Source of the DNA: Candidatus Levyibacteriota bacterium
Lineage (GTDB): Bacteria; Patescibacteriota; Microgenomatia; Levybacterales; UBA12049
Reading direction: 5' to 3'
DNA: 52,789 nt
Assembly (NCBI GenBank): GCA_027459725.1
Contig: DAIDHK010000008.1
Coordinates: forward strand, 1-52,789
Shown: positions 19,842-51,180 of the stretch, in pieces
Layout of the letters: every line of letters starts with the position of its first letter
How positions within the stretch are numbered: position 1 is the stretch's first letter
Notes under the pieces: generated by a model
What the model was told of the DNA's origin: nothing
The model's database searches: none
The model's input: the letters and a program-made list of their open reading frames with translations, nothing else
Program-made: the position numbers and the translations under genes

Positions 19842-21409
19842 GGTGCATGTGCCAGCAATGGTGTGGAGGTTCGAGTCCTCTTCCCGGCACTAGAGGGGAC
19901 TGTTTGTCCCGAATAGTACTGAATAGCTTGATATATCGGGCTAATTGAATGGTTCAATGTGCCATTATAGTCCCAAGCCAATCCTTCAGGGAACATTGAA
20001 CCTAAGAGCACTTTAGCCTGGGTTAGATTAGATCTTTTGTATGCTTCCCACAAGTCGGCAAGAATAGTTTTCATAAAAGAAGTTACTTCATCTATATTGT
20101 ATTTATCGAAAGTTGTGTCATCTTTTGCTATCTGTGCCTTTGTCATTTCACTTTCAATCATGGTATTCTGCTCCTTAAATATTTCATCAGAATAGATTCC
20201 AGCAAGGTTTTTCTGTACAAGCTGTTTTCTTATGGCTTGAAGTCTAGCAATTTCATCGTCTGCGCTATTTTTAATGTTTAATAACCTCGATTGTCTAGCA
20301 TAATAGGCTTCATATAGAGCGTTCATAAACAGTTTGAGACATTCTTCCTTAGGCGTGGTTTCTTTTAGTACACGTTTTAGTGCATCTTCGAGATCAATTA
20401 CCTTGATGGATTTACTATTGCATGGAGCACCACAGCGATAGTAAGCATATTTGCCACCATGGCCTTTAGTCATTCCCCCAGTTAGTCCTTTGCCACATTT
20501 TGCGCATTTTATAACTCTTCGCAGAGGCAAGATTGGATTATCATGATTTCTGTGAGCTAAGGCGACTTGATTAACATTTCTTCCATCTAAGATCGCTTGG
20601 ACTTTATAATATTGTTGCTCCGTAATCATGGGAACAAGTTGTCCCCTAACTTCCTGCTTATAGGTTTTCGAAGAAAGTATTCCCATATAGAATTTATTTC
20701 TAAAGAGTTTGTTCACTCTCTGAAGGCATAGAGTATATTCTTTTGTGCCTTGCCTTGCCCTTAATCCCCACTCATTCATAATATCTGCCATTTCACGAAG
20801 GCTTTTTGTTCCCGTTGCCATTAAGTCCCATGCTTCTTTCATTTTGTTCCATGTTTTGGGATCTTTAACTGCATACCCTGCTTCTACTTTGTACCCAAGA
20901 GGTGCTTGTCCTGTAACGATCATTCCTGCCATAAACCTGGCTTTTAGACCGTTTCTGGCTCTCTCGCTGCGAATATCATTATCAAGCTGAGCAAATCCAG
21001 CAAGTATTGTTTCAACAAGCTTTTCTGTAGGCGAATCCCCTGTAGGTTCTGTAGCGGATATTATATTAACGCCATTTTCAACCAACTTTTTTCGTATAGC
21101 TAAATAGTCAGCGGTTATCCTTGAAATTCTATCAAGCCTGTATACAAATACTGCTTGAAATTTATTTTTGTTCTTTCGGGAATACTCCAAAAGATTAATA
21201 AGTACTGGCCTTCCGGTAATAGTTTTAGCGGATCGTCCCTCTTCTCGGAAAACTTCAATTACCTCAAATCCTTTCTTTTCAGCTTCCCTCCTACAAATTT
21301 CTTCCTGAGTGTCGAGTGAAAAATTATCAACCTGCTCTTCTGTAGAGACACGAAGGTATAAAACTGCTTTTTGACCATCATCATATATAGTTGGTTTTTG
21401 TAGTTTCAT
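19733..21409 (-). CDS. large serine recombinase (paralog of 8408..10009)
   Basis: AVLYLRVSTEEQ (catalytic Ser), VYRLDRISR and the Cys cluster CAKCGK...YYRCGAPC. The C-terminal ~50 codons are antisense to tRNA-Leu(GAG) and its upstream flank. Confidence 0.85.
   Translation of the reverse strand: MKLQKPTIYDDGQKAVLYLRVSTEEQVDNFSLDTQEEICRREAEKKGFEVIEVFREEGRSAKTITGRPVLINLLEYSRKNKNKFQAVFVYRLDRISRITADYLAIRKKLVENGVNIISATEPTGDSPTEKLVETILAGFAQLDNDIRSERARNGLKARFMAGMIVTGQAPLGYKVEAGYAVKDPKTWNKMKEAWDLMATGTKSLREMADIMNEWGLRARQGTKEYTLCLQRVNKLFRNKFYMGILSSKTYKQEVRGQLVPMITEQQYYKVQAILDGRNVNQVALAHRNHDNPILPLRRVIKCAKCGKGLTGGMTKGHGGKYAYYRCGAPCNSKSIKVIDLEDALKRVLKETTPKEECLKLFMNALYEAYYARQSRLLNIKNSADDEIARLQAIRKQLVQKNLAGIYSDEIFKEQNTMIESEMTKAQIAKDDTTFDKYNIDEVTSFMKTILADLWEAYKRSNLTQAKVLLGSMFPEGLAWDYNGTLNHSISPIYQAIQYYSGQTVPSSAGKRTRTSTPLLAHAPQACLSTISASRLKDIIAKLHSILNLLRDRHTLPLE
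19807..19889 (+). tRNA. tRNA-Leu (anticodon GAG), type II
   Basis: Hand-folded: GCCGGGA acceptor, anticodon stem CATGC/GCATG, loop TTGAGGT, long variable arm, T-arm GGAGG-TTCGAGT-CCTCT. Confidence 0.9.
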
Positions 21410-21780
21410 GCTCCTCCCTTCTCATGAAGTAATTCTTGAAGCGTTAAGCCATCAAATATGCCTCGTTCAAAATCATCAAGCCAGCTAGTGGCTAAAAATT
21501 GAATTTCTGTAACGGCATCTCGTAATTGTTCAGAAGTAAATTCGTTAGCAATGTTTCCTAAAATTTCCTTTGCTTTCTTTAGTTGTTTTTCTTCATAAGC
21601 CTGTTCAGGAAATAAATCATCAAGAGATTTCTTAATGTTTTCTGGTGGCTTAAAGCTATTAGATGGAGCATTTAATACTTCTGTTAAAGGTTGGATTAAC
21701 TTTTCTTCCGTAGTTTTATCAGAATCAGTATTTGTAGTAGTTAAAGGTAGTGAAAATAGAGGTAATTCTGTCATATCCAT
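21406..21780 (-). CDS. hypothetical acidic protein, translationally coupled to the recombinase (candidate directionality or accessory factor)
   Basis: 124-aa ORF with a 4-nt overlap with the recombinase start. No family recognised. Confidence 0.5.
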   Translation of the reverse strand: MDMTELPLFSLPLTTTNTDSDKTTEEKLIQPLTEVLNAPSNSFKPPENIKKSLDDLFPEQAYEEKQLKKAKEILGNIANEFTSEQLRDAVTEIQFLATSWLDDFERGIFDGLTLQELLHEKGGA

Positions 21781-21813
21781 ATTAGTAAAAATTCATAAAA
21801 TCAAGGCTAATTA

Positions 21814-21831
21814 CTATCTATATATAGATAG
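21814..21831. promoter_or_regulatory. perfect 18-bp palindrome CTATCTATATATAGATAG plus an extra half-site ATATAGATAG (21843-21852)
   Basis: Located in the divergent intergenic region between the recombinase operon and the coupling-protein gene. Confidence 0.55.
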
Positions 21832-21884
21832 TTTATATCGAAATATAGATAGTGTCAAGAGCTAATTATCATTTCTGAGATAGT

Positions 21885-24589: not shown

Positions 24590-25018
24590 TTAATTTTGCA
24601 TTATTAAAAGAAACTCCTCGGGTTTTACAATAACGACATTTTTAAAAGTATGAAGATCGAGTAAGTCCTTATCTCCAGTCACAACATAATTACATTCTGC
24701 CTCTATTGCTGCTTCTAAAACCCTATTGTCATCTTCATCACGTACAGCATGTAGCGTTTGGGATGGGTGGACAATAACAAAATTTTCTTTAATGACCTCT
24801 TCGACTAAGGTAATTTTATCGGAAGTGAACTTAAATTTTTTCGTCAATATATCCAATAATTCACCAATGAGCATTGGGGTTGTAAAAGCAGTAAGTTTAT
24901 TTTCTTGGATTAACTTAATAATTGTTCTTGGTTTTCCACCAAAAAGTAACGAGGAAATAAAAACATTAGTATCTACAACGATTTTATACGGATTTTTTTC
25001 CATGTCGAGAAGAAGCAA
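24590..25018 (-). CDS. PIN-domain toxin (VapC-like)
   Basis: KIVVDTNVFISSLLFGG...VVTGDKDLL. Overlaps the upstream RHH gene. Confidence 0.75.
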   Translation of the reverse strand: MLLLDMEKNPYKIVVDTNVFISSLLFGGKPRTIIKLIQENKLTAFTTPMLIGELLDILTKKFKFTSDKITLVEEVIKENFVIVHPSQTLHAVRDEDDNRVLEAAIEAECNYVVTGDKDLLDLHTFKNVVIVKPEEFLLIMQN

Positions 25019-25235
25019 CTATGTCGTTAACTTCTTTCTCTGTAGTTATGCTAAGACGTTTCGCAACCGACTTACCATACGTAAATAATTCTTCCCATTT
25101 CTCATTATTTTTAATGTAACTTCTTAACGCTTCTCGAATTAAATCGCTTCGGTTACGAAATTCTTTTTTAGCTAACTCATCAACTTTTTTAACTAAATCC
25201 TCTGGGAGAGCAATATTAAGTGTTTGTGTATTCAT
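24984..25235 (-). CDS. ribbon-helix-helix (CopG-family) antitoxin
   Basis: LNIALPEDLVKKVDELAKKEFRNRSDLIREALRSYI. ATG at 25235 is preferred over TTG at 25241. Confidence 0.75.
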   Translation of the reverse strand: MNTQTLNIALPEDLVKKVDELAKKEFRNRSDLIREALRSYIKNNEKWEELFTYGKSVAKRLSITTEKEVNDIVASSRHGKKSV

Positions 25236-25263
25236 ATACAAAGATTGTATATAAGTTGTATAT
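25236..25263. promoter_or_regulatory. candidate RHH operator: ATACAA-aga-TTGTAT inverted repeat plus TTGTATAT direct repeat
   Basis: The sequence ATACAAAGATTGTATATAAGTTGTATAT lies immediately upstream of the antitoxin ATG. Confidence 0.45.
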
Positions 25264-25483
25264 TTCTGTCAAGTGGCAAAATTCTCCTAGATATTACTTC
25301 TGCTCTTCAAAAAGTTAGTTAAATAGTGTCTATGTGTAGACACTTAATTTTATTAATTTTGAATCTATTTTACTAAATTCCACATCTTCTTTATATCTTA
25401 TATACATATAAGAGGATATGATATATAATCCCAACTGAGTAGTATATATATTCCTCTGCTCATAGTATCTACTCGTCAATACT

Positions 25484-26245
25484 GTGAACGTATTACCTAT
25501 TACTCAAAAACAAAAACAACTTCTTTCCTATCTTTATACTTTTCGCTTTCTTACTGTTTCTCAATTTCAAAATATCTTTCATCATGCACATCCCAATAGA
25601 ATTAAATTGTGGTTAACAGACTTACTTGATAAAAAATTTATAACCAGACTAAAAATTGAAGACGATATAACAAAGCCATATATTTATTGTCTTTCCCAAA
25701 GAGCAAAGTATTTGCTGAAAGATAATGAAGATTATGATGTGTCTTTCTTAAATAGATTGTATAAAGAGAAAAATTTGACTCCCAACTTTATCAATCATTG
25801 CTTATCTCTTGCAGATACCTATTTGTTTTTTCTTACGCAGAAAGAAAAAGATACTGAAATAGATTTTTTTACTAAGCATGAACTTTCGGGATATGACTAT
25901 TTCCCTGAAGAATTACCAGAAGCATATATTGCAGTTGAGGAAAAAGCAGAAACCAACAGATATTTTCTTGATCTCTTTGATGACTATACTCCTGCTTGGG
26001 CTTTAAGAAAAAGAGTGAAAGCATATTTGGAGTATTATGAAAATAATACATGGCAGGAAAGAACGGAAAATAGTGAATTTCCAATTATTTTATTTGTCTT
26101 ACCTAATGAGCGCATGAAGAAACATATCTATTATTTTACAAAAGCACTGCTTGAAAAATCTTTTTATGAAGACATTACTATTTTCTTAACAACAAAAAAT
26201 AAAATAAAAGGAAATGGGCAGGATATTTGGGAAAAAGTAGAGTAA
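25484..26245 (+). CDS. replication-relaxation family protein (putative relaxase or replication protein)
   Basis: ITQKQKQLLSYLYTFRFLTVSQFQNIF is the typical N-terminal wHTH pattern of the Replic_Relax family. GTG start. Confidence 0.55.
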   Translation: MNVLPITQKQKQLLSYLYTFRFLTVSQFQNIFHHAHPNRIKLWLTDLLDKKFITRLKIEDDITKPYIYCLSQRAKYLLKDNEDYDVSFLNRLYKEKNLTPNFINHCLSLADTYLFFLTQKEKDTEIDFFTKHELSGYDYFPEELPEAYIAVEEKAETNRYFLDLFDDYTPAWALRKRVKAYLEYYENNTWQERTENSEFPIILFVLPNERMKKHIYYFTKALLEKSFYEDITIFLTTKNKIKGNGQDIWEKVE

Positions 26246-26265: not shown

Positions 26266-26604
26266 TTACTCTATTCCATGCATTTTCTTAACCTCTGATA
26301 ATCTGCACGGAGAAAAATATAAATCCCTTTCCAGTGGTAGCGCCTGGATTCCTGCACAATTTTTCTTTGCTGTTTCTAGTTCTCTTAAAGTAAAGTATCC
26401 AAGCTCTGGGAAATCTCCAACAACAAAGCCGAAGAAAAGAAAGTCATCGTCACTTGTCTCCTCTCCTTCAGTTGCATACCATGTCCAAGATCCTGTTGGA
26501 TCAAAGTATTTAATATACACCATTGGATCAGTTTCATTCTCTTGAGAATACAGTGCTGGTAGTGTTTTCTTTAATTCTTCTGTAAGTAAAATCATTTTCT
26601 TCAC
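26266..26604 (-). CDS. DUF2958-domain protein
   Basis: PALYSQENETDPMVYIKYFDPTGSWTWYATEGE...FGFVVG..ELGYFTLRELE matches the pattern seen on conjugative elements. Confidence 0.7.
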   Translation of the reverse strand: MKKMILLTEELKKTLPALYSQENETDPMVYIKYFDPTGSWTWYATEGEETSDDDFLFFGFVVGDFPELGYFTLRELETAKKNCAGIQALPLERDLYFSPCRLSEVKKMHGIE

Positions 26605-26781: not shown

Positions 26782-27663
26782 ATGAGCCAAAATCATAGTT
26801 TTAACACAGGAATTGATAATAAGTTGAAGGTGGGTCTTCTTCTTAACACAGGATTTACTATTTTTGAGTTTGCTGTGGGTATATTCTCAGGAAGTTTGGC
26901 TTTGCTATCTGATGCAGGGCATAATTTAACTGATTCTCTTAGCCTTCTTATTGTCTTTTTTGCTCAAAAAATTGCCAAACGAGAGGCAAATGTAGACCAT
27001 AGCTATGGGTATGGCAGGGCTACCATCCTTGCCGCCTTTGTAAATGGTCTTATCCTTGTTCTCTTAGCACTATATATTTTCTATGAAGCATGGGGAAGAA
27101 TTATGCAGCCAGAGCATGTTGCTGGTAGCTTAGTTGCCGGAGTTGCTTTTGTTGGGATAGTGGTGAATACTTCTATTGCATTACTTTTTCGCAAAGATCA
27201 AGACAGTATGCACATTAAAAGCGCATACATAAATATGTTTTTTGATGCGCTTGCATCAGTTGGAGCACTTATAGCAGGAGTTCTTATTATCCTCACAAAA
27301 CAGACTATTTTTGACTCACTCATCAGTATTCTCATTGGGATACTTCTACTTCGCAGTAGTTGGGAGGTTGTTCGGGATGCAATGCACGTGCTATTGGAAG
27401 GCGTGCCATCTGGAATAAATACAAAAAAAGTAAAGGGAGTCATTCTTGGTAATTCTTTGGTAAAACATGTTGATGATTTACATATTTGGGCAATTTCTTC
27501 CCAATATGCAGCATTGAGTTGCCATGTGGTTATTGAGGACTGTGATTTAGAAAAAAGCACACAGTTAGTCAAAGAGATAAAGCAGGAGCTTCAGAGCAAG
27601 TGTAATATAGAACACGCAACCATTGAAACAGAATTAAAAGAATGTCCGCCAGATAACAATTAA
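26782..27663 (+). CDS. czcD: cation diffusion facilitator (Zn/Co/Cd efflux) transporter
   Basis: SLALLSDAGHNLTDS (TM2 HxxxD) and the typical six-TM plus C-terminal-domain layout. Confidence 0.85.
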   Translation: MSQNHSFNTGIDNKLKVGLLLNTGFTIFEFAVGIFSGSLALLSDAGHNLTDSLSLLIVFFAQKIAKREANVDHSYGYGRATILAAFVNGLILVLLALYIFYEAWGRIMQPEHVAGSLVAGVAFVGIVVNTSIALLFRKDQDSMHIKSAYINMFFDALASVGALIAGVLIILTKQTIFDSLISILIGILLLRSSWEVVRDAMHVLLEGVPSGINTKKVKGVILGNSLVKHVDDLHIWAISSQYAALSCHVVIEDCDLEKSTQLVKEIKQELQSKCNIEHATIETELKECPPDNN

Positions 27664-27677
27664 AAAAGAAGGAACAC

Positions 27678-28232: not shown

Positions 28233-28250
28233 AATTTTATCCTACTCCTC

Positions 28251-28640
28251 TTAAGAAATGTTTTCAATGATTCTTTGCAACTTTCCTTCAATCTCTTGTG
28301 CTATTGGCGCAATTTCAGGATTCTCGACCATTTCCATTGCCACAGTAGGACGAATTGCTTCAACAGTAACTGTATTTCCTGCTTGGTAAACAATGACATT
28401 GCAGGGAAGAAGTAGCCCAATTGATGGCTCTTTTTGTAAAACTTGATATGCTGATTGTGGGTGGCAGGCTCCTAAGATAATATACTTCGTATAATCCACG
28501 TTTAACTTTCTCTTGAGCGTTTCTGTTACATTAATATCCGTTAGTACTCCAAATCCTTCTTTTGTAAGCTCTGCTTTTACTTTTGCAAGAACCGTTTCAA
28601 AATCACCTGTAACCTCTTTTTGTATTCCATATCTATTCAT
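28251..28640 (-). CDS. DUF302-domain protein
   Basis: FETVLAKVKAELTKEGFGVLTDINV...YIILGACHP...LLPCNVIVY. Confidence 0.75.
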   Translation of the reverse strand: MNRYGIQKEVTGDFETVLAKVKAELTKEGFGVLTDINVTETLKRKLNVDYTKYIILGACHPQSAYQVLQKEPSIGLLLPCNVIVYQAGNTVTVEAIRPTVAMEMVENPEIAPIAQEIEGKLQRIIENIS

Positions 28641-41220: not shown

Positions 41221-43443
41221 TTATAATTTCACTTTCTTAAGAAGGAGAGAGTTAGAAACAACCGAGATACTAGACATTGCCATTGCAGCTGATGCAAAAA
41301 TCGGATTTAAAAGAACATGAAAGAAAGGATATAAAACACCCATTGCTACAGGAATTAAAACAATGTTGTACCCAAATGCCCAGACCAGATTTGTTTTGAT
41401 CGTCCTCATGGTTCTCTTAGAAAGAATTACCGCATCTGCAACTGAGTGTAAGTCTTTGTTAATAAGCGTGATATCTGCCGCTTCTATAGCAACATCTGTA
41501 CCCGTTCCCATTGCAATACCCACATCTGCCGCTGCTAAAGCTGGAGCATCATTAATGCCATCTCCAATCATTGCTACTTTTTTACCTTCTTTTTGTATCT
41601 TTCGCACTTCTGCTTCTTTTTGATCTGGAAGAACTTCAGCAAGAACTCTTGTTATACCAATCTTACGAGCGATCGCATCTGCTGTTCTGTGATTATCTCC
41701 TGTTATCATGGCAACTTCTATGCCCATGTTTTGTAGCTTTTGGACTGCATTTTTTGCTGACTCTTTAACTGTATCAGCAACTGCAATAAGTCCAACTAAT
41801 TTCCCTTCCTGTGCAAGCATCATAACGGTTTTTCCTTCGTGTTCAAGTTGCGCTATTTGTGTATTAAACGCAGTAATAGAGATACGTTCTCTTTCCAGTA
41901 GTTTTCTATTTCCAAAATAAAGCTGCTTTTCCTCCACAACTCCTTCAATACCATGTCCCGCAACAGCATGAAATTTAACAACAGAACCTAATTTCATTTT
42001 TCGTTTCTCTGCTTCTTTTACTATTGCATCTGCCAGAGAGTGCTCCGAACCTTTTTCTAACGAAGCGGCAAGCTGCAAAATACCTTCTTTACGTAATTTG
42101 CCTGTAGCGATAATATCTGTCACTTCAGGTTTCCCATTTGTTAATGTTCCTGTTTTATCAAAAACAACGGTATTAATTTTATTAGCAATTTCCAAGCTCT
42201 CAGCATCTTTAATAAGAATTCCATGTTCTGCTCCTTTTCCTGTGCCAACCATTATTGCAGTAGGCGTTGCAAGTCCCATTGCGCACGGACAGGCAATAAT
42301 AAGAACTGCAACGGTATTCAAAAGGGCAAATACAAACGCTTGATGGACACCAAAGATATACCAAACAGCAAAGGTTACAATAGCAAGCATAATAACAACT
42401 GGTACAAAATATGAAGAGATAAGATCGGCAATGCGCTGAATTGGTGCTTTAGAACCCTGGGCTTCCTGAACCAGTTGTATAATTTGTGCAAGCATTGTCG
42501 CTGAGCCCACTTTTATTGCTTTATAAGTAAATGTCCCGGACTTATTCATTGTTGCGCCAACTACAGTATCTCCTTGCACCTTATCAACTGGCATGCTTTC
42601 CCCTGTTATCATTGATTCGTCAATTGAAGACTCTCCATCAAGGATAATTCCGTCAACAGGTATTTTTTCTCCTGGCCTAACACGAATAATATCTCCAACT
42701 TCTACTTGATTTATCGGTATATCAATATCTTTTCCATTCCGAATAACTCGCGCTGTTTTTGCCTGTAATCCCAAAAGTTTTTTAATTGCATCCGATGTGC
42801 CTAATTTCGCTTTTGCTTCAAAATATCGACCCAAAAGAATAAGACCAATCACAATAGTCGCAACGTCGAAATACGGCATTGGGTCAAGACCAATCCTCAT
42901 AACTACTTGCGGGAAAATTGTTACAAAAGCAGAATAAAAATAGGCAACGGTTGTTCCTAATGCAACGAGAGTATCCATATTAGCAGTTCTGTGTTTTAAT
43001 GCAGGAATGGTTGCTCTATAAAAATCAAGCCCTGCCCAAAACTGGACTGGTGTCGCAAGTAAAAGAAGAATCCATGAATTATGGAGAATGGGTGGAGAAA
43101 TCTTTATAAGACCAGGAAAACTACCCCAAAGGATAAGGCTACCAAGTCCTAAACTTACCATCACTTTATTTTTCAGTATTTGCAGTTCTTGTTTTTTTTC
43201 AGTTGCTTGAGTAGTATCACTTTTTTCTTCAAGTTCTAATGTATAGCCGGTTTTTGCAATGGAGTCAGCTAATTGCTGTGGTGTACAAGAGTCTGTATTG
43301 TACGAAACAGTTGCTTTTTCTGTTGCTAAGTTGACTACTGCTTCTGTAACTCCGGGAACTTTTTTCAGTGCACGTTCTGTAACACGTACACAAGAAGCAC
43401 AATGCATGCCTTTTAATAAAAATGTTTTTTTTGTTGTTGCCAT
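41221..43443 (-). CDS. copA: copper-translocating P1B-1-type ATPase
   Basis: N-terminal HMA domain [24 protein letters not shown] and GDGINDAP. Confidence 0.9.
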
Positions 43444-43448
43444 ACGTA

Positions 43449-44003
43449 TTAAAACATTGGAGTCTGCTCAGGACCCCTATTACTGTTTATTACAAAGAAT
43501 GCTTTAATTGTTTTTTCGTCAATTGTTTGCAACTTGTAGAGTCTCCCCCAGGAAGTTAATGCAACCGGCACGTCTAAATTCTTTCGAGGAACCATAATAC
43601 CTTTTCCTGTTGTTTGTCGAAAGATTTGTTTTAGTTTTTCAACATCACTTGCCGAAAGAGAAGCATTATATGAAAGAATAACTGCTCCATGCTCCAAACT
43701 ATGCACAAGAAGCTCATCCGGTACTTCTGTATCATGAATTCCTGCTCCACCAACACCATCGCCATAATGCCATCCAGAAGTTGGGGGATTAGAATTGTAC
43801 GGCGGATGACTTTCGCCCCGTTTTATGTGAGTTTCCCCTTGTATAGTAATTGCTTCACCCATAAGAGGTTTCGTAGATGTTTGTGCAGAGATCGAACTTT
43901 GGTTTTGATTGCTATCTTGCTGGTTTGTGAAAAACACTCCGCCAACAATAATAAGAAGTGTTGCCAAACCTATGCCTAAAAATACTTTATGTTCTATTGT
44001 CAT
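43449..44003 (-). CDS. DUF3105-domain protein, membrane-anchored
   Basis: [15 protein letters not shown]...[10 protein letters not shown]. Confidence 0.7.
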
Positions 44004-44004
44004 A

Positions 44005-44364
44005 TTAGGTTACAATAATTTTGCCATGAAACATGTTCATTCCACACGCGTAGTCAAACTCACCTGTTTTTTCAGGAGTAACTACAACAGCTACTTTTTT
44101 GTTGAGAGGTAAATTCTTTCGTATACGAAAATCTCCAAGAACAACTTCCTCCAAACAACTTGAGGGATCTTTACGAATAAAATTAAGTGTTGTTTTCTTT
44201 CCTTTGGGAATAGAAATAACATTGGGAAAATATCCACCTTCAACAGTAATATCAATGCTACTGGTGTTCACTACTACTGCATCTTCCTCTTTTTTCATGA
44301 GAAAAAACCAATAAACAAATAGTATTCCACTAATACTTGCAATCGCTACAATAATTTTATCCAT
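44005..44364 (-). CDS. membrane-anchored cupredoxin-like domain protein
   Basis: N-terminal TM, then ITVEGGYFPNVISIPKGKKTTLNF...YACGMNMFHGKIIV. Similar to the C-terminal domain of 30074..31141. Confidence 0.65.
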   Translation of the reverse strand: MDKIIVAIASISGILFVYWFFLMKKEEDAVVVNTSSIDITVEGGYFPNVISIPKGKKTTLNFIRKDPSSCLEEVVLGDFRIRKNLPLNKKVAVVVTPEKTGEFDYACGMNMFHGKIIVT

Positions 44365-44372
44365 ATACCTAT

Positions 44373-44389
44373 TACTACAAACTGTAGTA
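44373..44389. promoter_or_regulatory. CopY/BlaI-type box TACTACA-AAC-TGTAGTA
   Basis: Perfect 7-bp arms, 9 nt upstream of the cupredoxin-gene ATG (head of the cupredoxin-DUF3105-copA operon). Confidence 0.65.
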
Positions 44390-44425
44390 GATGACTCATC
44401 TATTTGTCAAGGGTTTTCGTCACAA

Positions 44426-44698
44426 CTATTTTTGCTTTTGAAAAACAGTCATAATTTCTGTAATTGCCTCATCTTTTTTCCCTTTACTGATTGCATCTGC
44501 AACACAACCCTTCAAATGATTTTCTAAAAGTACATTTCCAGTTCCTTTTAATTGGCTTTCTACAGCTTGCAGCTGAGTAAGAATATCAATGCAGTATACG
44601 TCATCTTCAACCATCTTCATGACGTTTTCTATTTGTCCTTTGGCAATCTTGAGTCGGTGTAGAATTCTTTCTTGTGTATTTTTTGGTCTATATGCCAT
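44426..44698 (-). CDS. csoR: CsoR-family copper-sensing repressor
   Basis: ILHRLKIAKGQIENVMKMVEDDVYCIDILTQLQAV...HLKGCV. Confidence 0.85.
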   Translation of the reverse strand: MAYRPKNTQERILHRLKIAKGQIENVMKMVEDDVYCIDILTQLQAVESQLKGTGNVLLENHLKGCVADAISKGKKDEAITEIMTVFQKQK

Positions 44699-45256: not shown

Positions 45257-46552
45257 ATGAAACGTATTGTCGCCATATTGTCGGTTGTTTTTGCGTACTT
45301 AATAATTCCTTCAGTGGCCTTTGCAGCAACAAGTAGCGTTATTACCGATTACACAAATAACACCCTACAACTTATCACGGTTATTGCATCTGCTCTTACA
45401 GTATTTTTCCTAGTGAAAGGAGGATATCTCTATATAACTTCTGCTGGTAATCCTCAGTCTTTGGAAAATGCAAAAAAGACAATTAAAAACGCCATTATTG
45501 GATTACTCTTGGTTCTTGGGGCGCATGTTATTGTTTCAACACTCACGGCAGCCTTAGCAGGAACAGTATCTAACACTAACACCGCAGCTATTCCACTTTC
45601 CCCTATTGAAACTGTTAAGCCAAATGATGGACTTACCCAGGTTCTTATTGATGCAATTTCAGGAGTACTCCAAAATATTGTTCAAAGTGCAACAAAACCA
45701 ATTATTGATGGAATTATTACGTATCTTACAACAACACCAAGCTTGCTTTCAAATTCTGTTGTATTTAATTTCTGGTTAGTCATTGTTGGCATTACAGATA
45801 GTCTTTTTATTGTTGTTGTGGCACTTTTAGGACTGCACGTGATGAGTGCTGAAAGTCTTGGATTTGAGCAAGTTGAAATTAGGACACTTCTTCCAAAAAT
45901 AGGATTTGCCTTTTTAGGGGCAAATGTCTCACTTTTCTTAGCAGATTATGTAATTACCACATGCAACGCATTGGTCAAAGCAGTTATAGACTCAACCGGC
46001 GGGATTGCACAGGCATGGATAGTAAATGCAATTACGCTCCCTACTTTATCGAGTGGACAAACGTTTTCACTTATTACCTTATTATTTCTCGTCTTGTTTC
46101 TCATTTTGGCAATAGTCCTTCTCTTTATGTATATTGGCAGGCTTATTTTTATTGCCTTGGCAGGAGTTCTCGCCCCGTTAATCTTTCTTTTTTGGGTGTT
46201 GCCAAAGTTTTCAGACTTTGCGGAAATCGCAGTCAAAACATATATTGTCACTGTCTTTGTTATCTTTGTTCATGTAATAGTGATTCAATTGGCAGCATCA
46301 TTTTTGGCTATTCCAGCAAATAACCAGAATTCACTTTTAGCAATTGCCGTTGCCATTGGTCTTTTCTTTACGCTTCTAAAAATCCCCGGCATGATGTATC
46401 AAATGGTTTTTTATAGCTCAGGACTCAGATCCTTTAGGCAGTTAGGCGGGCAAATTATAAATGTCATTAGTAGCAGTAATAGCTCATCGGCAACTAGATC
46501 TGAAGCAGCAAGTGGCGCAGTAAAACTTGCCAGAAAGAGAGTAATGGCATGA
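45257..46552 (+). CDS. pilin-like N-terminal module fused to a VirB6/TrbL-like polytopic membrane protein
   Basis: Residues ~30-95 (YITSAGNPQSLENAKKTI...) are homologous to the preceding pilin. They are followed by at least 6 TM helices. Confidence 0.6.
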   Translation: MKRIVAILSVVFAYLIIPSVAFAATSSVITDYTNNTLQLITVIASALTVFFLVKGGYLYITSAGNPQSLENAKKTIKNAIIGLLLVLGAHVIVSTLTAALAGTVSNTNTAAIPLSPIETVKPNDGLTQVLIDAISGVLQNIVQSATKPIIDGIITYLTTTPSLLSNSVVFNFWLVIVGITDSLFIVVVALLGLHVMSAESLGFEQVEIRTLLPKIGFAFLGANVSLFLADYVITTCNALVKAVIDSTGGIAQAWIVNAITLPTLSSGQTFSLITLLFLVLFLILAIVLLFMYIGRLIFIALAGVLAPLIFLFWVLPKFSDFAEIAVKTYIVTVFVIFVHVIVIQLAASFLAIPANNQNSLLAIAVAIGLFFTLLKIPGMMYQMVFYSSGLRSFRQLGGQIINVISSSNSSSATRSEAASGAVKLARKRVMA

Positions 46553-47055
46553 GAACAACTGTTATTCCAGCACAAATCACAACAGTTGAGGATAAGATTG
46601 TTGGAAGCTTAACGCTTTCACAAATTTTTATTTTACTTATACCAGTTCTTTGGACAACACTTGTTTTCGGAGTTCTTCCTCCAACTACTCATCTTGCGTG
46701 GTATAAAATTCCTCTGATTCTTTTTGTGCTGGTAGCTTGTTTGATTCTTTCTTTAAGAATTAAAGGGAAAGTGGTTATTAATTGGTTGGTTGTAATTCTG
46801 CAATATAACCTTAGACCACAATATTATCTGTTTGACAAAAATGATACATATCTACGTGATATAGAGGTTGTAGAAAAGGTAGTGCAGCAAAAACCTGTTG
46901 CAGTAAAAAAAGAAATTGCTATTGCAGCCAAGAAATTTACTATCAAAGATCTGAAGGAGCTAGAGAAATTTATTCACAATCCAAATTACACATTTAGTCT
47001 TAAACCGGACAAGAAAGGAGGATTATATGTGGCTGTTGCACAAATCCAAAAATAA
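46549..47055 (+). CDS. PrgI-like (VirB3-analogue) small membrane protein
   Basis: IPAQITTVEDKIVGSLTLSQIFILLIPVL followed by 2 TM segments. 4-nt overlap with the previous gene. Confidence 0.55.
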   Translation: MRTTVIPAQITTVEDKIVGSLTLSQIFILLIPVLWTTLVFGVLPPTTHLAWYKIPLILFVLVACLILSLRIKGKVVINWLVVILQYNLRPQYYLFDKNDTYLRDIEVVEKVVQQKPVAVKKEIAIAAKKFTIKDLKELEKFIHNPNYTFSLKPDKKGGLYVAVAQIQK

Positions 47056-47647
47056 GGTTTCCAGTAGACGTCAAATGCAAATAAAGGAAGTCAAAGATGA
47101 TATTCTTGTGCTTCCTAATAATGAGTATCGACTTATCGTTGAAACATCATCAGTAAATTTTGAATTGAAAAGTGAAGTCGAACAAGATGTCTTAATTGAT
47201 AGTTTTCAGAATTTCCTTAATTCCCTCTCAACACCAATTCAAATCCTGATTCGTGTCCGGGAAGTGGACATTGACCACTACGTTGAGCAAATCAGTAAAA
47301 GCAAGGTAACTGAGAAAGAAAAAGTCTACAAAGAACAGATTGATAATTATTGTGAGTTTATTGAAGAACTTGTATCGGGAAATAAAATCCTCTCAAGGAA
47401 ATTTTATGTTGTTATTCCCTATCATCACACAGGATCAAATAAAGATTTTCAACTTATTAAAGAACAATTATATGTTAGTCGGGATATTGTTATGCGAGGT
47501 ATGGAAAAACTTGGCATGAAAGTGCGAACGTTGGATAGTTTGGAAGTTCTTAATCTTTTCTATAGCTTTTACAATCCAAGCCAAGTGAAGACACAAGAAT
47601 TGAAAGCAGAGACAGTCAAAGCAATTTTTCAACAAGCATATGTTTAA
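47027..47647 (+). CDS. VirB4/PrgJ N-terminal-domain-like protein (separate ORF; alternative start 47075)
   Basis: QIKEVKDDILVLPNNEYRLIVETSSVNFELKSE..Q resembles the N-terminal domain of Gram-positive VirB4 ATPases. Overlaps the next ORF by 8 nt. Confidence 0.55.
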   Translation: MWLLHKSKNKVSSRRQMQIKEVKDDILVLPNNEYRLIVETSSVNFELKSEVEQDVLIDSFQNFLNSLSTPIQILIRVREVDIDHYVEQISKSKVTEKEKVYKEQIDNYCEFIEELVSGNKILSRKFYVVIPYHHTGSNKDFQLIKEQLYVSRDIVMRGMEKLGMKVRTLDSLEVLNLFYSFYNPSQVKTQELKAETVKAIFQQAYV

Positions 47648-49445
47648 CCTAAATAAAAAAGAGTTAAAAAATCGAACAACGTTGCGCCGCGACGTTGTTA
47701 AACGGTCTTTTCAGTATAATTTTGGAGAACAAGATCAAGTTGATTTAATTTCTTACTCAGGGCTTGAGGAAAACACAACATATCTTCAGATGGGAGATAA
47801 ATATGTTCGTACACTCTTTGTGTCTGGATATCCATATGTTGGCTCGACTGGTTGGCTGAACATGCTTATTAACTTTAATCATAATATTGATATCTCCTAT
47901 CATATTGAACAAGTTGATCCAATTCATGCACTGCCTAAGCTCAATAGAAAAATTACTGAGCTTGAATCAACCAAACGAACCATGTTGAAAGCTGGTAAAG
48001 TTATTGGTTCTGAAATTACTGATCCATTAGAATCTGCGATGGAACTAAAAGACAAAATCCAACGAGGACAAGAAAAACTATTTCAAGTATCAATATATAT
48101 GGCAATTACTGCAAATAGTTTGGCAGAATTAAATAAAGTTACAACGCTTTTGGAGACTGTCATGTCAACGAGGCTATTTTATATTAAGACCGCAACATTC
48201 CAACAACTAGAAGGACTTCAGTCAAGTCTTCCTCGCGGAGAAAATTTACTTGCACAAAAACGCAATCTTGATAGTTCAAGTGCTGCGCTTACCTTCCCTT
48301 TTGTTTCTTCTGAATTAGTGCAAGAATCAGGAATTTTGTATGGTATCAATAAATCAAATAACTCATTAGTTATTGTTGATAGGTTTTCTTTAAATAATGC
48401 CAATTCTATTGTCTTTGCTCAATCAGGGAGTGGGAAAAGCTACACAGCAAAAGTGGAAATCTTAAGACAACTTATGCAAGGAACAAAAGTAATTGTCATT
48501 GATCCAGAGCGGGAATATAAACAGCTTACCTACTCAGTGAACGGGACGTATATAAAACTTTCAGCAAAATCAAAAGAGAAAATTAACCCGTTTGATTTCG
48601 CAACTACGGTCAAAAACGGCGATGAATTGGCAGAACATACGCAGGACTTAACAGAAATTATTTCCTTGATGGTTGGAGGGCTGAATGCTGATGAAAAAGC
48701 AGCAGTTGATAAAGCAATACTACAAACCTATAAGCAATTTGGTTGGTTGCTCAATCCAACATACACGCCAAAAAAGAAACGAGATTCAAGAGGTAGAAAA
48801 CCAAAAGAAAAAGCGTATCCGCTACTCAAAGATTTCTATAAAACCCTTAAGCAGATGAAGCAGAAAACGCTTTGTAATAAACTTGAGAAATTTATTAAAG
48901 GCTCACTTTTCGCTGTATTTGACTCTCCAACCAATATTAAGTTGGATAACAGGCTTGTTGTATTTGATATCAAAGACCTCAACGAATCCCTCAGACAAAT
49001 TATGATGATGGTTGTTGCTAATTTTGTTTCAGCACAGGTCAAAGAAAGTCCCCAGAAACGCATTTTAATCATTGATGAGGGTTGGATGCTCTTGCAACAC
49101 GAAGAGAGCGCTAGATTCGTTGCAGGGCTCACAAGAAGGGCAAGAAAATATTACCTGGGTGTTACCATTATCTCTCAACAGGCAAATGATTTTTTGACCC
49201 AGGATTATGGTCGTGCCATTGCTTCGCAATCTGCACTTAGAGTTTTAATGAAGCAAGATACAACAACAATTAAGAAGGTCGCAACAGAATTTAACCTCAG
49301 TGAATATGAACAGCATTTTCTTTTAACGTGTGATCGTGGAGAGGCATTACTAATTGCCGATCAAAATCATGTAGCTGTCAAGGTTGTTGCATCAGAAAAA
49401 GAACATCCTCTACTTACTACTGATCCAAAAGAGATTTATTTATAA
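47640..49445 (+). CDS. virB4: VirB4-like T4SS ATPase (ATPase domain)
   Basis: Walker A QSGSGKSYT and Walker B ILIIDEGW. 601 aa. Confidence 0.8.
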   Translation: MFNLNKKELKNRTTLRRDVVKRSFQYNFGEQDQVDLISYSGLEENTTYLQMGDKYVRTLFVSGYPYVGSTGWLNMLINFNHNIDISYHIEQVDPIHALPKLNRKITELESTKRTMLKAGKVIGSEITDPLESAMELKDKIQRGQEKLFQVSIYMAITANSLAELNKVTTLLETVMSTRLFYIKTATFQQLEGLQSSLPRGENLLAQKRNLDSSSAALTFPFVSSELVQESGILYGINKSNNSLVIVDRFSLNNANSIVFAQSGSGKSYTAKVEILRQLMQGTKVIVIDPEREYKQLTYSVNGTYIKLSAKSKEKINPFDFATTVKNGDELAEHTQDLTEIISLMVGGLNADEKAAVDKAILQTYKQFGWLLNPTYTPKKKRDSRGRKPKEKAYPLLKDFYKTLKQMKQKTLCNKLEKFIKGSLFAVFDSPTNIKLDNRLVVFDIKDLNESLRQIMMMVVANFVSAQVKESPQKRILIIDEGWMLLQHEESARFVAGLTRRARKYYLGVTIISQQANDFLTQDYGRAIASQSALRVLMKQDTTTIKKVATEFNLSEYEQHFLLTCDRGEALLIADQNHVAVKVVASEKEHPLLTTDPKEIYL

Positions 49446-49450: not shown

Positions 49451-50074
49451 ATGAATTTTTTCATGTTTGGTAGCGTTTGGTCTTTTCGACGCGAATTAAA
49501 ATTTGTTATTTTGACCATTGTTCTTATACTCCTCCTCCCTATTTTTGCAGTTATCCTTTTAACCAATGCCGGAATTGATATTGTTTCGGATAAACTTGCC
49601 ACACATAACACACAAACTAACAAAGTTGAGATTCATAATCCTGCTGATGGCTCAGTAGTTACTGAGGTATCTTCTGAAAGAGAGTGGCCAGTGCATGGAG
49701 TTGTAACGCTTGAGTTTGGAGCAATAGACCTTCCGTATCAGCCCTTGCACACAGGAATTGATATAGCTAACCCCCAAGGACAAATTGGTGATTCTGTCAC
49801 TCCTTTTATGGATGGAACGGTAATTTATGCTGGAGAGATATTTTGGGGTTACGGCAAACATATTATTATTGACCATGGAAGCAATATTACTTCTCTTTAT
49901 GGACATTTAGACAAAATATTCGTGTATGTTGGAGAAAAAGTGCATTTAGGACAAGTTATCGGGCATGAGGGAGAAACAGGTTGGGCAACAGGACCCCATG
50001 TGCATTTTGAAACAAGAGTGTATGGTATTCCTGTAAATCCAAGAACATTTTTGGCTGGCGACCCAGCACAATAG
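49451..50074 (+). CDS. membrane-anchored M23 peptidase (T4SS-associated cell-wall hydrolase candidate)
   Basis: HTGIDIA...GHLDKI...GETGWATGPHVHFE. Confidence 0.8.
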   Translation: MNFFMFGSVWSFRRELKFVILTIVLILLLPIFAVILLTNAGIDIVSDKLATHNTQTNKVEIHNPADGSVVTEVSSEREWPVHGVVTLEFGAIDLPYQPLHTGIDIANPQGQIGDSVTPFMDGTVIYAGEIFWGYGKHIIIDHGSNITSLYGHLDKIFVYVGEKVHLGQVIGHEGETGWATGPHVHFETRVYGIPVNPRTFLAGDPAQ

Positions 50075-50099: not shown

Positions 50100-50318
50100 A
50101 TGGATAGTCCTCAATTTAGGAAACAGGTTGGAGAAGGAATTAAAAAAGCACGAATTAAAGCTAAGCTTACTCAGGCAGAAGCTGCCAAAAAGGCAGGGAT
50201 AAATGTTAATTACTTTGCAGTTATTGAGCGTGGGGAGGTAACCACCTCTGGTGAAAAATTAGAGAATATAAGTAAAGCACTAGGAACAACCGTAGATGAA
50301 TTAACAAAATCTAAATAA
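50100..50318 (+). CDS. XRE-family helix-turn-helix transcriptional regulator
   Basis: IKKARIKAKLTQAEAAKKAGINVNYFAVIERGE. Confidence 0.8.
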   Translation: MDSPQFRKQVGEGIKKARIKAKLTQAEAAKKAGINVNYFAVIERGEVTTSGEKLENISKALGTTVDELTKSK

Positions 50319-50326: not shown

Positions 50327-50581
50327 TTATTTCTTCTTTATAAATCCTTTGGCAAAAAGTTGCATAATGTCTGCTAGCTTTTCTGCTCTTTCTAGAGTTG
50401 CATGTTCTGGATCGGTTTGCTGAAGCATTTTTAAGGTAGATTTCGTTACTTTAGATTTATTGCCTTGATTTGCTGCGAAATTAAATGTGGATGCACTGAT
50501 TTTTTCTAGCATCTTCTTAAACTTGCTTTTTTCAAGAATCTGCTTTATTTCATTCCATGGCAAAGCCTTATTAGCTGTCAT
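50327..50581 (-). CDS. hypothetical small protein
   Basis: 84-aa ORF downstream of the PLD-like gene on the same strand. Confidence 0.45.
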   Translation of the reverse strand: MTANKALPWNEIKQILEKSKFKKMLEKISASTFNFAANQGNKSKVTKSTLKMLQQTDPEHATLERAEKLADIMQLFAKGFIKKK

Positions 50582-50628
50582 ATTGGCTAAATTCTATCAG
50601 AAATTCATTACTGAGGTAAAGCGGAAGC

Positions 50629-51087
50629 TTACAAAAGCCTTTTATATTTCAGAAAAGTAAACATTTCCATAGCAGTTTCTCCGTTTTCTATTCGTCTCAT
50701 AATTTCTCGACTGTGCGTTTGGGAAAGAATATTGAGGCTTCCTTCCCAAAGAATTTGTCTATCTAAAATGGCTAGCTTTCTGTGATGGTTGCCTGAACAA
50801 AGTAAAACCTGAATTCCTACAGTTTCACACCATCTAATTGCATCTTCAGATTGTGTCTCCATACTCTCCTCATGCTCTTTTGGGTCTCTGGTTATTATGT
50901 ATACTTTTACCCCACGGTCTAATAGTTTTTGGAATATGCGATCAAACGTTTTCATCCGTTTTGTAGTAATGTATGGGCTTTCAATGAAAACTTCGTTTTT
51001 GCATTTAGAAAGATCTTTGGTAAAGGTTTGATAAAAAGTGGTTTCATCAAAGAGATCAGAGGATGATAAAGAATTATTTGTCCTCAT
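50629..51087 (-). CDS. phospholipase D-superfamily (Nuc-like) single-HKD nuclease
   Basis: HHRKLAILD...GSLN (HxKxxxxD...GSxN). Has the ~150-aa size typical of Nuc-type endonucleases. Confidence 0.7.
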   Translation of the reverse strand: MRTNNSLSSSDLFDETTFYQTFTKDLSKCKNEVFIESPYITTKRMKTFDRIFQKLLDRGVKVYIITRDPKEHEESMETQSEDAIRWCETVGIQVLLCSGNHHRKLAILDRQILWEGSLNILSQTHSREIMRRIENGETAMEMFTFLKYKRLL

Positions 51088-51147
51088 CTTTATCCTCCGC
51101 AGCTTGATAAGCCTCCATGAACCTGGTAAAATGAGTTAATAACGTGA

Positions 51148-51180
51148 GAAGAGGTTCAAAATAAAACCCCTCTTCCGCAC
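51148..51180. repeat. putative attR of island 2: T-arm-like hairpin plus core
   Basis: GAAGAGGTTCAAAATAAAACCCCTCTTCCGCAC. Shares GGTTCAAAATAAA with the island 1 attR, and CCTCTTCC..GCAC with the tRNA-Leu(GAG) 3' end. Confidence 0.5.

Follow-up and report, generated by a model that had tools for sequence, protein, structure and literature searches.

A probable integrative conjugative element bounded by serine recombinase sites in a Microgenomates-group Patescibacterium

The DNA analysed here, referred to as the window, is a stretch of 52,789 nucleotides (contig DAIDHK010000008.1) from a Candidatus Levyibacteriota bacterium. It carries genes for a type IV secretion system (T4SS) and, at the end of a tRNA-Leu(GAG) gene, a gene for a large serine recombinase (LSR). 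The locus raises the question of whether the recombinase and the secretion machine are parts of one integrative conjugative element (ICE) or whether the T4SS is a settled resident of the chromosome. Patescibacteria, whose genomes are tiny and of which almost none have been cultured, represent a large part of bacterial diversity. In the published view, loss of the relaxase left their T4SS to be taken over for a different, partly essential function (PMC12102498, PMC12857230). The element matters because its secretion machine has been seen in Patescibacteria as a fixed, chromosomal and relaxase-less apparatus that no longer moves DNA. Our analysis indicates that positions 19891-51180 of the window, about 31 kb, are probably an intact member of an ICE family of Microgenomates-group Patescibacteria. 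The element looks like a complete, recently transferred ICE, and it may be self-transmissible.

A preliminary description of the window had proposed a Gram-positive-type ICE with a serine integrase, arranged as three groups of genes between tRNA-Leu(GAG) and a repeat of its 3' end. We profiled the forty open reading frames (ORFs) between 19.7 and 51.2 kb against Pfam, and the key ORFs also against NCBIfam, and tested the bounds of the island against the definition of an ICE. The recombinase gene lies at the tRNA end, and the right attachment site (attR) lies beyond the T4SS and PLD genes. Within these bounds are an LSR, VirD4-like and Replic_Relax group, about 18 kb of metal and redox cargo, and an operon running from a pilin gene to an M23 hydrolase gene that is followed by an XRE regulator, a small gene and a PLD gene. 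The three-group layout is thus confirmed, with the amendment that the window holds a second island bounded by recombinase sites, arranged in tandem with the element. We also looked for a block that is syntenic and universal in relatives and lacks attachment (att) sites. What we found is a block that is bounded by recombinase sites and whose cargo varies among relatives, and the ICE reading withstood the tests that were run.

Recombinase sites and the ends of the element

The recombinase carries Resolvase, Recombinase and Zn_ribbon_recom domains, all three above their Pfam cut-offs, and its serine motif RVSTEEQ is invariant across 14 homologues. Most of the 120 homologues listed are about 505-515 amino acids (aa) long, and the alignments span about 91% of the query. 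As had been proposed, the gene is translationally coupled to that of a small acidic protein. A homologue of this 124-aa protein is found upstream of the recombinase in all 69 metagenome loci (69/69), and no family match to it was obtained in Pfam or NCBIfam. We regard it as a candidate directionality factor.

The left junction of the element is fixed by L016, a related locus from another assembly. Identity between the two is 98.2% from 19891 rightwards and 96.9-98.5% over 2.45 kb, while that of the tRNA-Leu(gag) genes is 65.5%. This fall in identity at the end of the tRNA places the crossover at the ...GCAC end of the tRNA gene (about 19886-19889). At the right end, the tRNA-like repeat AGAGGTTCAAAATAAAACCCCTCTTCCGCACTACA at 51150-51183 resembles the 3' end of tRNA-Leu(GAG), GGAGGTTCGAGTCCTCTTCCCGGCACTAGA. 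When attP is rebuilt by joining 51150-51178 to the sequence from 19889 onward, it reads GGTTCAAAATAAAACCCCTCTTCCG|CACTAGAGGGG, in which perfect 7-bp inverted repeats (CCCCTCT/AGAGGGG) flank TCCGCACT. The predicted attP of the window element contains ..GGTTCAAAATAAAACCCCTCTTCCGCACTAGAGGGGACTGTTTGTCCCG.., and the predicted empty attB contains ..GGTTCGAGTCCTCTTCCCGGCACTACAGTGAACATATTG.. Likewise, the attP rebuilt for a related element (loci L014 and L015) is GCTCTT-CCGCAC-AAGAGC, a different sequence with the same symmetry.

The preliminary description took the right-hand repeat to be a degenerate copy of the tRNA 3' end. On the recombinase strand, however, GTGC and GAACC are separated by 24 nt in the P arms and by 19 nt in the tRNA genes in 4/4 elements (the window element, L014/L015, the second island of the window, here called island 1, and L148/L100); this comparison was made on P against B, and the picture for P' and B' is less clear. 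In attB of serine integrases, the zinc-ribbon motif sits 5 bp nearer the centre than it does in attP (Rutherford et al. 2013, PMC3783163). The agreement between these values indicates that the repeat is instead the P arm of an LSR attP, which mimics the T-arm of the tRNA (T-loop mimic GGTTCAAAATAA) at a position 5 bp further from the crossover. The P arm is homologous in L014 and island 1. A decayed direct repeat was considered for attR and rejected, since the same CTCTTCCGCAC is present in L014 despite different resident tRNAs and the arm is conserved in island 1. We propose that the recombinase would integrate the circular form of the element precisely at the 3' terminus of a tRNA gene, which in this copy is tRNA-Leu(GAG), with the T-arm and acceptor strand of the tRNA acting as the host half-site and the P arm of the element presenting the same GGTTCRA T-loop motif at the greater distance.

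The T-loop and its distance from the acceptor end are equal in all tRNAs, which would explain how this recombinase family is retargeted among tRNAs. An antisense tRNA is present at the 3' end of the recombinase gene in 53 of the 58 metagenome loci with enough downstream sequence, and 19 tRNA species are represented. A recombinase that is 97-98% identical to that of the window (L101) ends in yet another tRNA-derived tail.

The recombinase ORF of the window remains in frame when it is read across the rebuilt attP (..VPSSA|EEGFYFEPLLTLLTHFTRFMEAYQAAEDKDEDK*) and ends with a stop at 51074 that overlaps the start of the PLD gene at 51087. The ORF of L014/L015 reads across its attP as ..SCA|EERRYFEPLLDNLLSYFIKFMESYQAEEAKNEE*. 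Because attP lies inside the recombinase gene, integration severs the last 36 codons, which are left at the far right end of the element. Nearly all of the 120 listed homologues end a few residues past the crossover in tRNA-antisense sequence (..SCADERT*, ..SGAGDGNRTR..); the exceptions are P0207, which ends ..ALYIEPALTWFTSLMEFYQNVDISMN*, P0185, which has a similar tail, and P0214. In the metagenome contig L152, the recombinase reads in frame into a tail whose homologue lies at the right end of the L003 element in its integrated form, and the stop overlaps the PLD ATG. When P0207 was searched exhaustively, the alignment extended through the tail in 9 of the 150 best cluster representatives. 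Eight of these nine share an x(W/Y/I/L)(F/I/L)E-like helix (WFEPIL, RIEPIL, WIEPVL, NLEPII and looser forms), and the ninth, P0387, has a tRNA-antisense-like ending. The F/I/L-E-P codons are the nucleotides of the GGTTCRA motif on the other strand, so the constraints on the protein and on the site coincide. By this arrangement only the excised circle would encode the full-length recombinase, and there the genes for the recombinase, the PLD nuclease and the 84-aa protein would share one direction. The exchange of tails may have a regulatory role.

Conjugation genes, relaxase candidate and cargo

The features of the element are collected in Table 1. All of the gene assignments of the preliminary description were recovered by the Pfam and NCBIfam searches; among them, the VirB2-like pilin, the M23 hydrolase, the XRE regulator, the Nuc-like PLD nuclease, the PIN/RHH addiction module and the DUF2958 protein were each recovered by Pfam. 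The pilin also scores 45.9 bits against NF045849, a Mycoplasma-ICE pilin model with a cut-off of 40. The VirB4 ATPase matches NF045971, the CD1110-type conjugative VirB4 model, with 359 bits (cut-off 325) over model positions 187-733, and the 206-aa protein encoded upstream matches positions 11-174 of the same model as well as TrsD. Thus, the reading of a split VirB4 is correct. The proposed pilin-VirB6 fusion holds as far as its pilin domain and membrane helices are concerned: the 431-aa protein has a pilin domain and about six further membrane helices, and nine hydrophobic segments are predicted in it. No VirB6/TrbL profile in Pfam or NCBIfam matches it, and it is VirB6-like by topology only. 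Similarly, the PrgI/VirB3-like protein has the two transmembrane (TM) helices and a position that is kept in all relatives, and its PrgI profile score falls under the cut-off. The mating-pore genes beside virB4 thus comprise a pilin above cut-off, a TrsD-like protein, an M23 hydrolase, a sub-threshold PrgI and a VirB6 assigned from topology. The VirB4 is of the Patescibacteria clade, in which TrsD, PrgI and VirB2-like pilins are encoded near virB4 as in the window (PMC12102498), with placement in that clade being made by identity.

The VirD4/TraD-like type IV coupling protein (T4CP) is supported by profiles, more weakly than VirB4. TrwB_AAD_bind scores 25.8 bits (cut-off 20.5), DUF87 is matched, and TraG-D_C falls just under its cut-off in Pfam. 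The best sequence match in the PDB, by phmmer, is TrwB (1e9r, E = 8.5e-5). A Walker A motif, GATGTGKS, is at residue 478, predicted TM helices span residues 49-67 and 262-280, and homologues carry DUF8128. As the curated TraD/VirD4 models of NCBIfam match it only far below cut-off, the protein is a divergent member of the type IV coupling proteins.

The preliminary description listed a replication-relaxation family protein and found no canonical MOB relaxase. The former was recovered, with PF13814 (Replic_Relax) at 27.1 bits against a cut-off of 25.3, and the latter statement does not hold, as PF13814 corresponds to the MOBC relaxase superfamily (Coluzzi et al. 2017, PMC5357655). Across 68 aligned homologues, E95 never varies, D146 is present in at least 90%, and E152-x-K154 is conserved, which together form a PD-(D/E)xK signature. 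The AF2 model has a pLDDT of 90.9, and its best fold matches are the FokI, PaqCI and XisH nucleases together with MarR-type winged helices; whole-chain TM-scores are low because two domains are involved, and the E-values are modest (2e-4). A PDB sequence search finds the MarR-like N-terminal domain only, and the nuclease domain is seen by fold search. Family membership, the winged helix and the PD-(D/E)xK fold together indicate that a relaxase candidate is present. The intergenic region upstream of its gene is AT-rich and includes the inverted repeat AGTGTCTA-n4-TAGACACT at 25325-25344; from its position beside the relaxase gene, which is the sole argument, it is a candidate origin of transfer (oriT).

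In the mechanism that we propose, the MOBC-type relaxase would nick oriT, probably in this adjacent AT-rich region, and the VirD4-like ATPase would pass the DNA to a monoderm-type T4SS consisting of the VirB2-like, VirB6-like and VirB3-like proteins, the split VirB4 and the M23 hydrolase. The PIN/RHH pair would stabilise the element, and its middle carries exchangeable cargo, here for copper and metal resistance and thiol redox. We infer that the window copy can be excised, nicked by its relaxase and transferred through its own T4SS.

The cargo, described earlier as metal resistance, is confirmed as a set of metal and redox genes. It comprises a CDF transporter, DUF302, rhodanese, two CsoR, HMA, DsbD-cupredoxin, two DsbA, BlaR1/BlaI-like and M23 proteins, and further DUF305, CAP, two P-type ATPases, DUF3105 and a cupredoxin. 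Relatives carry other genes at this position. Upstream of the pilin gene, and often also between the M23 and XRE genes, gene content is wholly different by locus; restriction-modification (R-M) systems, GmrSD, a reverse transcriptase and an operon for the threonine pathway are among the genes found. The M23-XRE gap is a hot spot for cargo (L014 12450-19689, L005 12460-20712, L100 12453-17732, L001 12507-14978). In L014, it holds the threonine-pathway operon (aspartate kinase, asd, hom and thrC, together with SHMT); in a lineage known for auxotrophy, it is noteworthy that a mobile element carries genes of amino-acid biosynthesis. Between a csoR gene and the pilin gene of the window, a perfect palindrome, ATATACCCC-n3-GGGGTATAT, occupies 44699-44719. 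It is like a CsoR operator and could tie transcription of the T4SS or of the cargo to copper.

Table 1. Features of the window element and of the neighbouring island, with window coordinates
Feature	Position	Strand	Basis and remarks
tRNA-Leu(GAG)	19807..19890	+	T-arm and acceptor 3' strand are the host (B) arm of attL; ARAGORN
Large serine recombinase (integrase)	19889..21409	-	Integrated ORF runs antisense through the tRNA to a stop at 19733 (19733-21409)
124-aa acidic protein	21406..21780	-	Translationally coupled to the recombinase; stop overlaps recombinase start by 4 nt
VirD4/TraD-like coupling ATPase (T4CP), 896 aa	21885..24575	+	Long membrane-anchored N-terminal region
Addiction module	24590..25241	-	PIN_3 toxin 24590-25018, RHH antitoxin 24984-25241; Pfam
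Candidate oriT	25300..25460		AT-rich, intergenic, several inverted repeats; precedes the relaxase gene
MOBC-type (Replic_Relax) relaxase candidate	25484..26245	+	N-terminal winged helix and PD-(D/E)xK nuclease domain
DUF2958 protein	26266..26604	-	Conserved member of the left module; Pfam
Metal-resistance and thiol-redox cargo	26782..44698		Pfam
VirB2-like pilin, 119 aa	44877..45236	+	PF18895 (T4SS_pilin) 46.5 bits; TrbC
Pilin domain fused to polytopic membrane domain, 431 aa	45257..46552	+	PF18895 at residues 26-96
PrgI/VirB3-like membrane protein	46549..47055	+	PrgI 22.2 bits, below cut-off 27; two TM helices
TrsD-like protein, 206 aa, N-terminal part of split VirB4	47027..47647	+	TrsD NF041427; homologues carry PF26593 TraC-like
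VirB4 ATPase, 601 aa, C-terminal two thirds	47640..49445	+	P-loop_TraG, AAA_10; Walker A AQSGSGKS
Membrane-anchored M23 peptidoglycan hydrolase (VirB1 analogue)	49451..50074	+	Pfam; TM helix 19-37
XRE-family regulator, right-end module	50100..50318	+	Pfam HTH_3
84-aa basic protein, right-end module	50327..50581	-	79% identical in L014, 43% in L005
PLD-family (Nuc-like) nuclease	50629..51087	-	PLDc_2 48 bits; directly downstream of the recombinase in the joined form
Detached recombinase 3' end	51074..51178	-	After excision would add ..EEGFYFEPLLTLLTHFTRFMEAYQAAEDKDEDK* in frame; frame reconstruction
attR	51150..51183		Element P arm (T-loop mimic GGTTCAAAATAA), core ..TCCGCAC, start of host flank
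Second recombinase-bounded island (island 1)	8408-19229		LSR1, 533 aa, 31% identical to the ICE recombinase

Related elements and alternative explanations

The two end modules of the element recur in other assemblies and metagenomes. The right-end order of pilin, pilin fusion, PrgI-like, TrsD-like, VirB4 and M23 genes is repeated at L001, L003, L005, L006, L014 and L100, and it is followed by XRE, a small ORF and PLD in L003, L005, L006 and L014, the XRE regulator itself being kept in all four. L100 has HTH genes and PLD, with a small ORF of no recognisable relationship, and the contig of L001 stops short of the XRE-PLD part. Likewise, the left-end order of small protein, recombinase and a tRNA-Leu(gag) overlapped antisense by the recombinase 3' end is found at L008, L010, L015 and L016. 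T4CP, Replic_Relax and usually DUF2958 adjoin the recombinase in left-module loci, DUF2958 being the neighbour of Replic_Relax in L010 and L015 as well as in many metagenome loci, and both T4CP and MOBC are present in 17 of the 25 metagenome loci with at least 7 kb of upstream sequence.

Both modules are present on the 41-kb Logan contig SRR29757247_208 (L014 and L015), where an element of about 29.5 kb fills the interval from tRNA-Leu(gag) to tRNA-Val(tac), the same two tRNA genes as in the window. Its cargo consists of a type I R-M system, a Bil-like system and the threonine-pathway operon, and the order of its end modules is that of the window. Assembly GCA_040384045.1 (L099 and L100) has a version of about 25 kb at tRNA-Leu(cag) in the same gene order. 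We rejected it as a clean third example because its recombinase is unrelated by BLAST and its right end is rearranged; this end abuts a window-type recombinase remnant and a duplicated P' arm, so the locus is rearranged or accreted. At 18400-19950 of L100, the P' arm ATGAGGAGATAGTAGTATCGTCAAAGCGACGAATAGCTTG occurs twice, after the attR of the element and after tRNA-Leu(gag), with recombinase 3' remnants. Loci of tRNA-Leu seem to pile up successive integrations and scars. In total, the order of left-module genes and T4SS/PLD module is shared by three contigs, and the ends are built alike in the window and in L014/L015. This recurrence on unrelated contigs, together with the serine-integrase site geometry, indicates more than chance.

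Several comparisons bear on movement. The upstream flank of L016 is unrelated to that of the window, and island 1 is absent from it. Relative to L008, identity is 82% for the recombinase, 39% for T4CP, 37% for MOBC and 51% for the backbone trigger factor; relative to L015, the corresponding values are 66%, 77%, 59% and 55%. Protein identity alone was rejected as proof of horizontal transfer: element proteins exceed trigger factor in similarity, but the conservation of VirB4 is not decisive on its own. Incongruence among modules and the L016 junction are stronger arguments for transfer than the identity comparison, and the junction of L101 likewise speaks for movement. Search of other genomes for the element yielded, besides the related elements in other assemblies, joined (attP) forms of relatives on two metagenome contigs. 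The 13.9-kb contig L148, which contains no tRNA, has the order cargo, small protein, recombinase, PLD, a 77-aa ORF and two further genes, and continues with M23, VirB4 and its upstream ORF on the other strand. Judging by gene order, this is the circular permutation predicted for an excised element. L152 has the same recombinase-PLD junction. A mini-element of about 5.5 kb (L121, OBEQ011585635.1, 740-6270) has both end modules, running from PLD and XRE to the small protein, recombinase and tRNA-Leu(tag), and is without T4SS, T4CP and relaxase.

A number of observations weigh against an active ICE. No empty tRNA-Leu(GAG)/tRNA-Val site was found in close relatives, and a search for empty sites in syntenic relatives by trigger-factor alignment (universal motifs) returned one distant Woesebacteria locus only. 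The L148 junction could come from a tandem array instead of a free circle. The attR of the window is unlike the product of a simple duplication, and the P-arm model that accounts for the difference is built from few complete elements. In-frame reading of the recombinase tail was rejected as a universal feature, since in L148/L100 and island 1 the conserved tail is out of the recombinase frame, which stops about 7 codons past the crossover or is out of register. Neither profiles (Pfam, NCBIfam) nor topology identified a VirB8-like protein, and the VirB6 and VirB3 assignments rest on topology and sub-threshold matches. T4CP is weak against curated conjugative families, with the TraD/VirD4 NCBIfam models far below cut-off, and Replic_Relax of the window scores barely above its cut-off and has E146 in place of the PD aspartate that is seen in more than 90% of homologues. 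Conservation is higher among the T4SS proteins (for VirB4, 80-88% across Daviesbacteria, Gottesmanbacteria and Woykebacteria) than among the DNA-processing proteins, a pattern that fits a machine under host-level selection. In Saccharimonadia, T4SS genes are essential for epibiotic growth and T4CP is not, and the system has been read as co-opted (PMC12102498, PMC12857230).

The main rival explanation, which we consider unlikely, draws on part of this evidence. It holds that a domesticated ICE has become a fixed symbiosis island in which the T4SS and pili serve host-cell attachment or exchange and the recombinase, T4CP and Replic_Relax are relics or have other roles. The near-universal presence of T4SS genes in Patescibacteria, their essentiality in Ca. 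Southlakia, where T4CP is dispensable (PMC12102498; PMC12857230), the very strong conservation of VirB4 and the glutamate in the window relaxase candidate all speak for domestication, as do the occupation of the same locus in all three syntenic relatives (window, L008 and L015) and the existence of recombinase remnants and rearranged copies (L100). It is difficult to square with a left end that is 97-98% identical beside a 65%-identical tRNA, with mosaic modules, nineteen targeted tRNA species and the joined forms L148 and L152, or with the state of the window copy, in which all core ORFs, the symmetric recombinase sites and the in-frame detached tail are intact and are accompanied by an addiction module. 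Both sets of evidence would be reconciled if the pore of an ICE had a second use in an epibiotic lifestyle.

We consider it very improbable, and already disfavoured by these data, that the locus consists of unrelated neighbours, a small mobilisable element with recombinase, T4CP and relaxase beside a chromosomal T4SS locus and a coincidental right repeat. Mini-elements without a T4SS do exist (L121 and island 1), and the distance of more than 20 genes between virB4 and the T4CP and MOBC genes led earlier surveys to treat them as unlinked. Yet the right boundary, beyond the T4SS and PLD genes, holds the recombinase's own P arm and detached 3' codons; L148 and L152 join the recombinase directly to PLD, followed in L148 by M23 and VirB4; and three contigs have both modules in the same order, with the recombinase of L099/L100 being unrelated and its right end rearranged. 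A prophage or phage-like island with a serine integrase can be dismissed almost entirely. Large serine recombinases are typical of temperate phages, and one distant relative is filed in IMG/VR, but the forty ORFs include no capsid, portal, terminase or tail gene detectable by Pfam and have conjugation genes instead. Moreover, a scan of 2.9 million IMG/VR viral contigs with the recombinase gave 2 loci only, so the recombinase family is not phage-like.

The host suggested earlier, a reduced-genome bacterium, is borne out by the relatives of the element and by the backbone. VirB4 relatives with 80-100% identity are named Daviesbacteria, Gottesmanbacteria, Woykebacteria, Patescibacteria or Microgenomates-group bacteria, and the closest named recombinase relative is from a Levybacteria metagenome-assembled genome (MAG), within the Microgenomates group of the Patescibacteria. 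The backbone order of threonine dehydratase, DUF5660, trigger factor and tRNA-Leu genes is common to the window, L008 (a contig of this Levybacteria MAG) and L015. ARAGORN places four tRNA genes in the window: Leu(tag) 6824-6905(-), Leu(cag) 8437-8518(+), Leu(gag) 19807-19890(+) and Val(tac) 51773-51848(+). Island 1 is without T4SS, T4CP and relaxase; its LSR1 overlaps tRNA-Leu(cag) antisense, and its attR-like P arm at 19199-19229 has 13 nt (CTCTCATCCGCAC) in common with the tRNA end. Island 1 is absent in L008, L015 and L016, as their two tRNA-Leu genes stand only 55-97 bp apart.

Other observations concern the surroundings of the element. A LOOT RNA (Rfam RF03000, 78.7 bits, gathering score 46.4) lies within island 1 at 12205-12323 (+). 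Between island 1 and tRNA-Leu(gag), a lone tRNA T-arm remnant (AAGGTTCGAGTCCTCTCATGACC, 19270-19292) is probably the scar of an older integration. The tRNA-Leu(gag) of the window is unusually divergent, with 69-76% identity to that of relatives in gapped alignment, compared with 76-94% among the relatives themselves; it is not listed by Rfam at the gathering score, and its cloverleaf looks intact. The tRNA-Leu(cag) of the window is instead like the tRNA-Leu(gag) of relatives (88-89%). The AT-rich region 51184-52789 (about 1.6 kb) contains no ORF of at least 62 aa and only tRNA-Val(tac). Backbone genes at 1852-5082 code for threonine dehydratase and an acetolactate-synthase-like TPP enzyme, which is unexpected for a Patescibacterium with minimal biosynthesis. 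An exact-protein look-up of the backbone gene at 7699-8280 gave no match; its start codon probably differs.

Taken further, the reading of the window element as an ICE leads to a broader proposal, which we put forward tentatively and to which we give somewhat less than even weight. The T4SS of Patescibacteria may, at least in the Microgenomates group, be the mating machine of a large, still-active ICE family that hops among tRNA genes by means of a T-loop-reading integrase, whose gene has its 3' end rewritten at each integration and excision as a switch between integrated and free states, and that shuttles defence, metal-resistance and amino-acid-biosynthesis operons between ultra-small bacteria. 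If these are working ICEs, conjugation would be a route of gene flow among Patescibacteria, the divergent MOBC family would be their 'missing' relaxase, and the variable cargo would show what passes between them, namely systems for restriction and defence, copper resistance and a threonine pathway. The tRNA-directed serine integrase, with a defined attP of about 50 bp, would be a candidate tool for DNA insertion in Patescibacteria, where genetics barely exists, and an integrase gene that spans attP provides a testable hypothesis on the control of recombination direction.

Comparison with known systems

The window element resembles the monoderm MPF_FATA ICEs, such as C. difficile CTn2 (CD1110-type VirB4) and the Mycoplasma ICE (Mbov_0395/0397), in that its VirB4 and pilin exceed the cut-offs of those families. 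It also has a VirB3-like protein, VirB4, a hydrolase and a VirD4-type T4CP without outer-membrane components, and it is chromosomal with cargo between the modules. It differs from them in having VirB4 in two genes, a pilin domain on the VirB6-like protein, no recognised VirB8-like gene and a Patescibacterium as host. The triad of serine integrase, MOBC (PF13814) relaxase and VirD4 coupling protein is that of the streptococcal IME_Class_8 elements (PMC5357655). Those elements are without a T4SS and must borrow one, whereas the window element has a mating-pore operon inside the same att boundaries.

The Patescibacteria T4SS described by Quinonero-Coronel et al. 2025 (PMC12102498) has the same VirB4 relatives and likewise consists of VirB2-like pilins, PrgI, TrsD, VirB4 and an M23-type hydrolase. 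In that account the system is chromosomal, mostly relaxase-free and probably co-opted, while the T4SS of the window shares a bounded element with a T4CP and a relaxase candidate. The survey scanned +/-20 CDS around virB4. Most T4CPs lay at a distance from virB4, and the relaxases numbered only 109, with 58 assigned to MOBC and 39 located near a t4cp gene; recombinases, tRNA and att sites are not mentioned in it (PMC12102498). In the window, virB4 stands more than 30 genes away from the T4CP and relaxase genes, beyond the reach of +/-20 CDS and at the opposite end of one bounded element.

Phage large serine integrases (A118/LI, Bxb1, phiC31; PMC3783163) share with the window recombinase their domain set, the dyad symmetry of the att sites and the 5-bp attB shift, and the small upstream partner of the window recombinase may act as a directionality factor. 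Unlike them, the window recombinase targets tRNA 3' ends with the T-loop as distal motif, has attP inside its gene and is carried by a conjugative element. No report of a split serine-integrase gene was found in the literature searched, an incomplete set. The nearest precedent is that of the SSV-type tyrosine integrases of archaeal viruses and plasmids, whose site lies within the integrase ORF and whose gene is split by integration into a tRNA gene (PMC7253208). These enzymes are of the tyrosine class and their gene is cut into two large fragments and inactivated, whereas the window serine recombinase swaps only about 36 last codons. The literature searched likewise contained no description of such elements in Patescibacteria, although the set was incomplete and this is not proof of novelty. 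As read here, the element probably brings together a monoderm-type ICE that pairs a serine integrase with a MOBC relaxase, a Patescibacterium as host, an integrase that reads the T-loop and targets tRNA 3' ends, and an integrase gene spanning attP.

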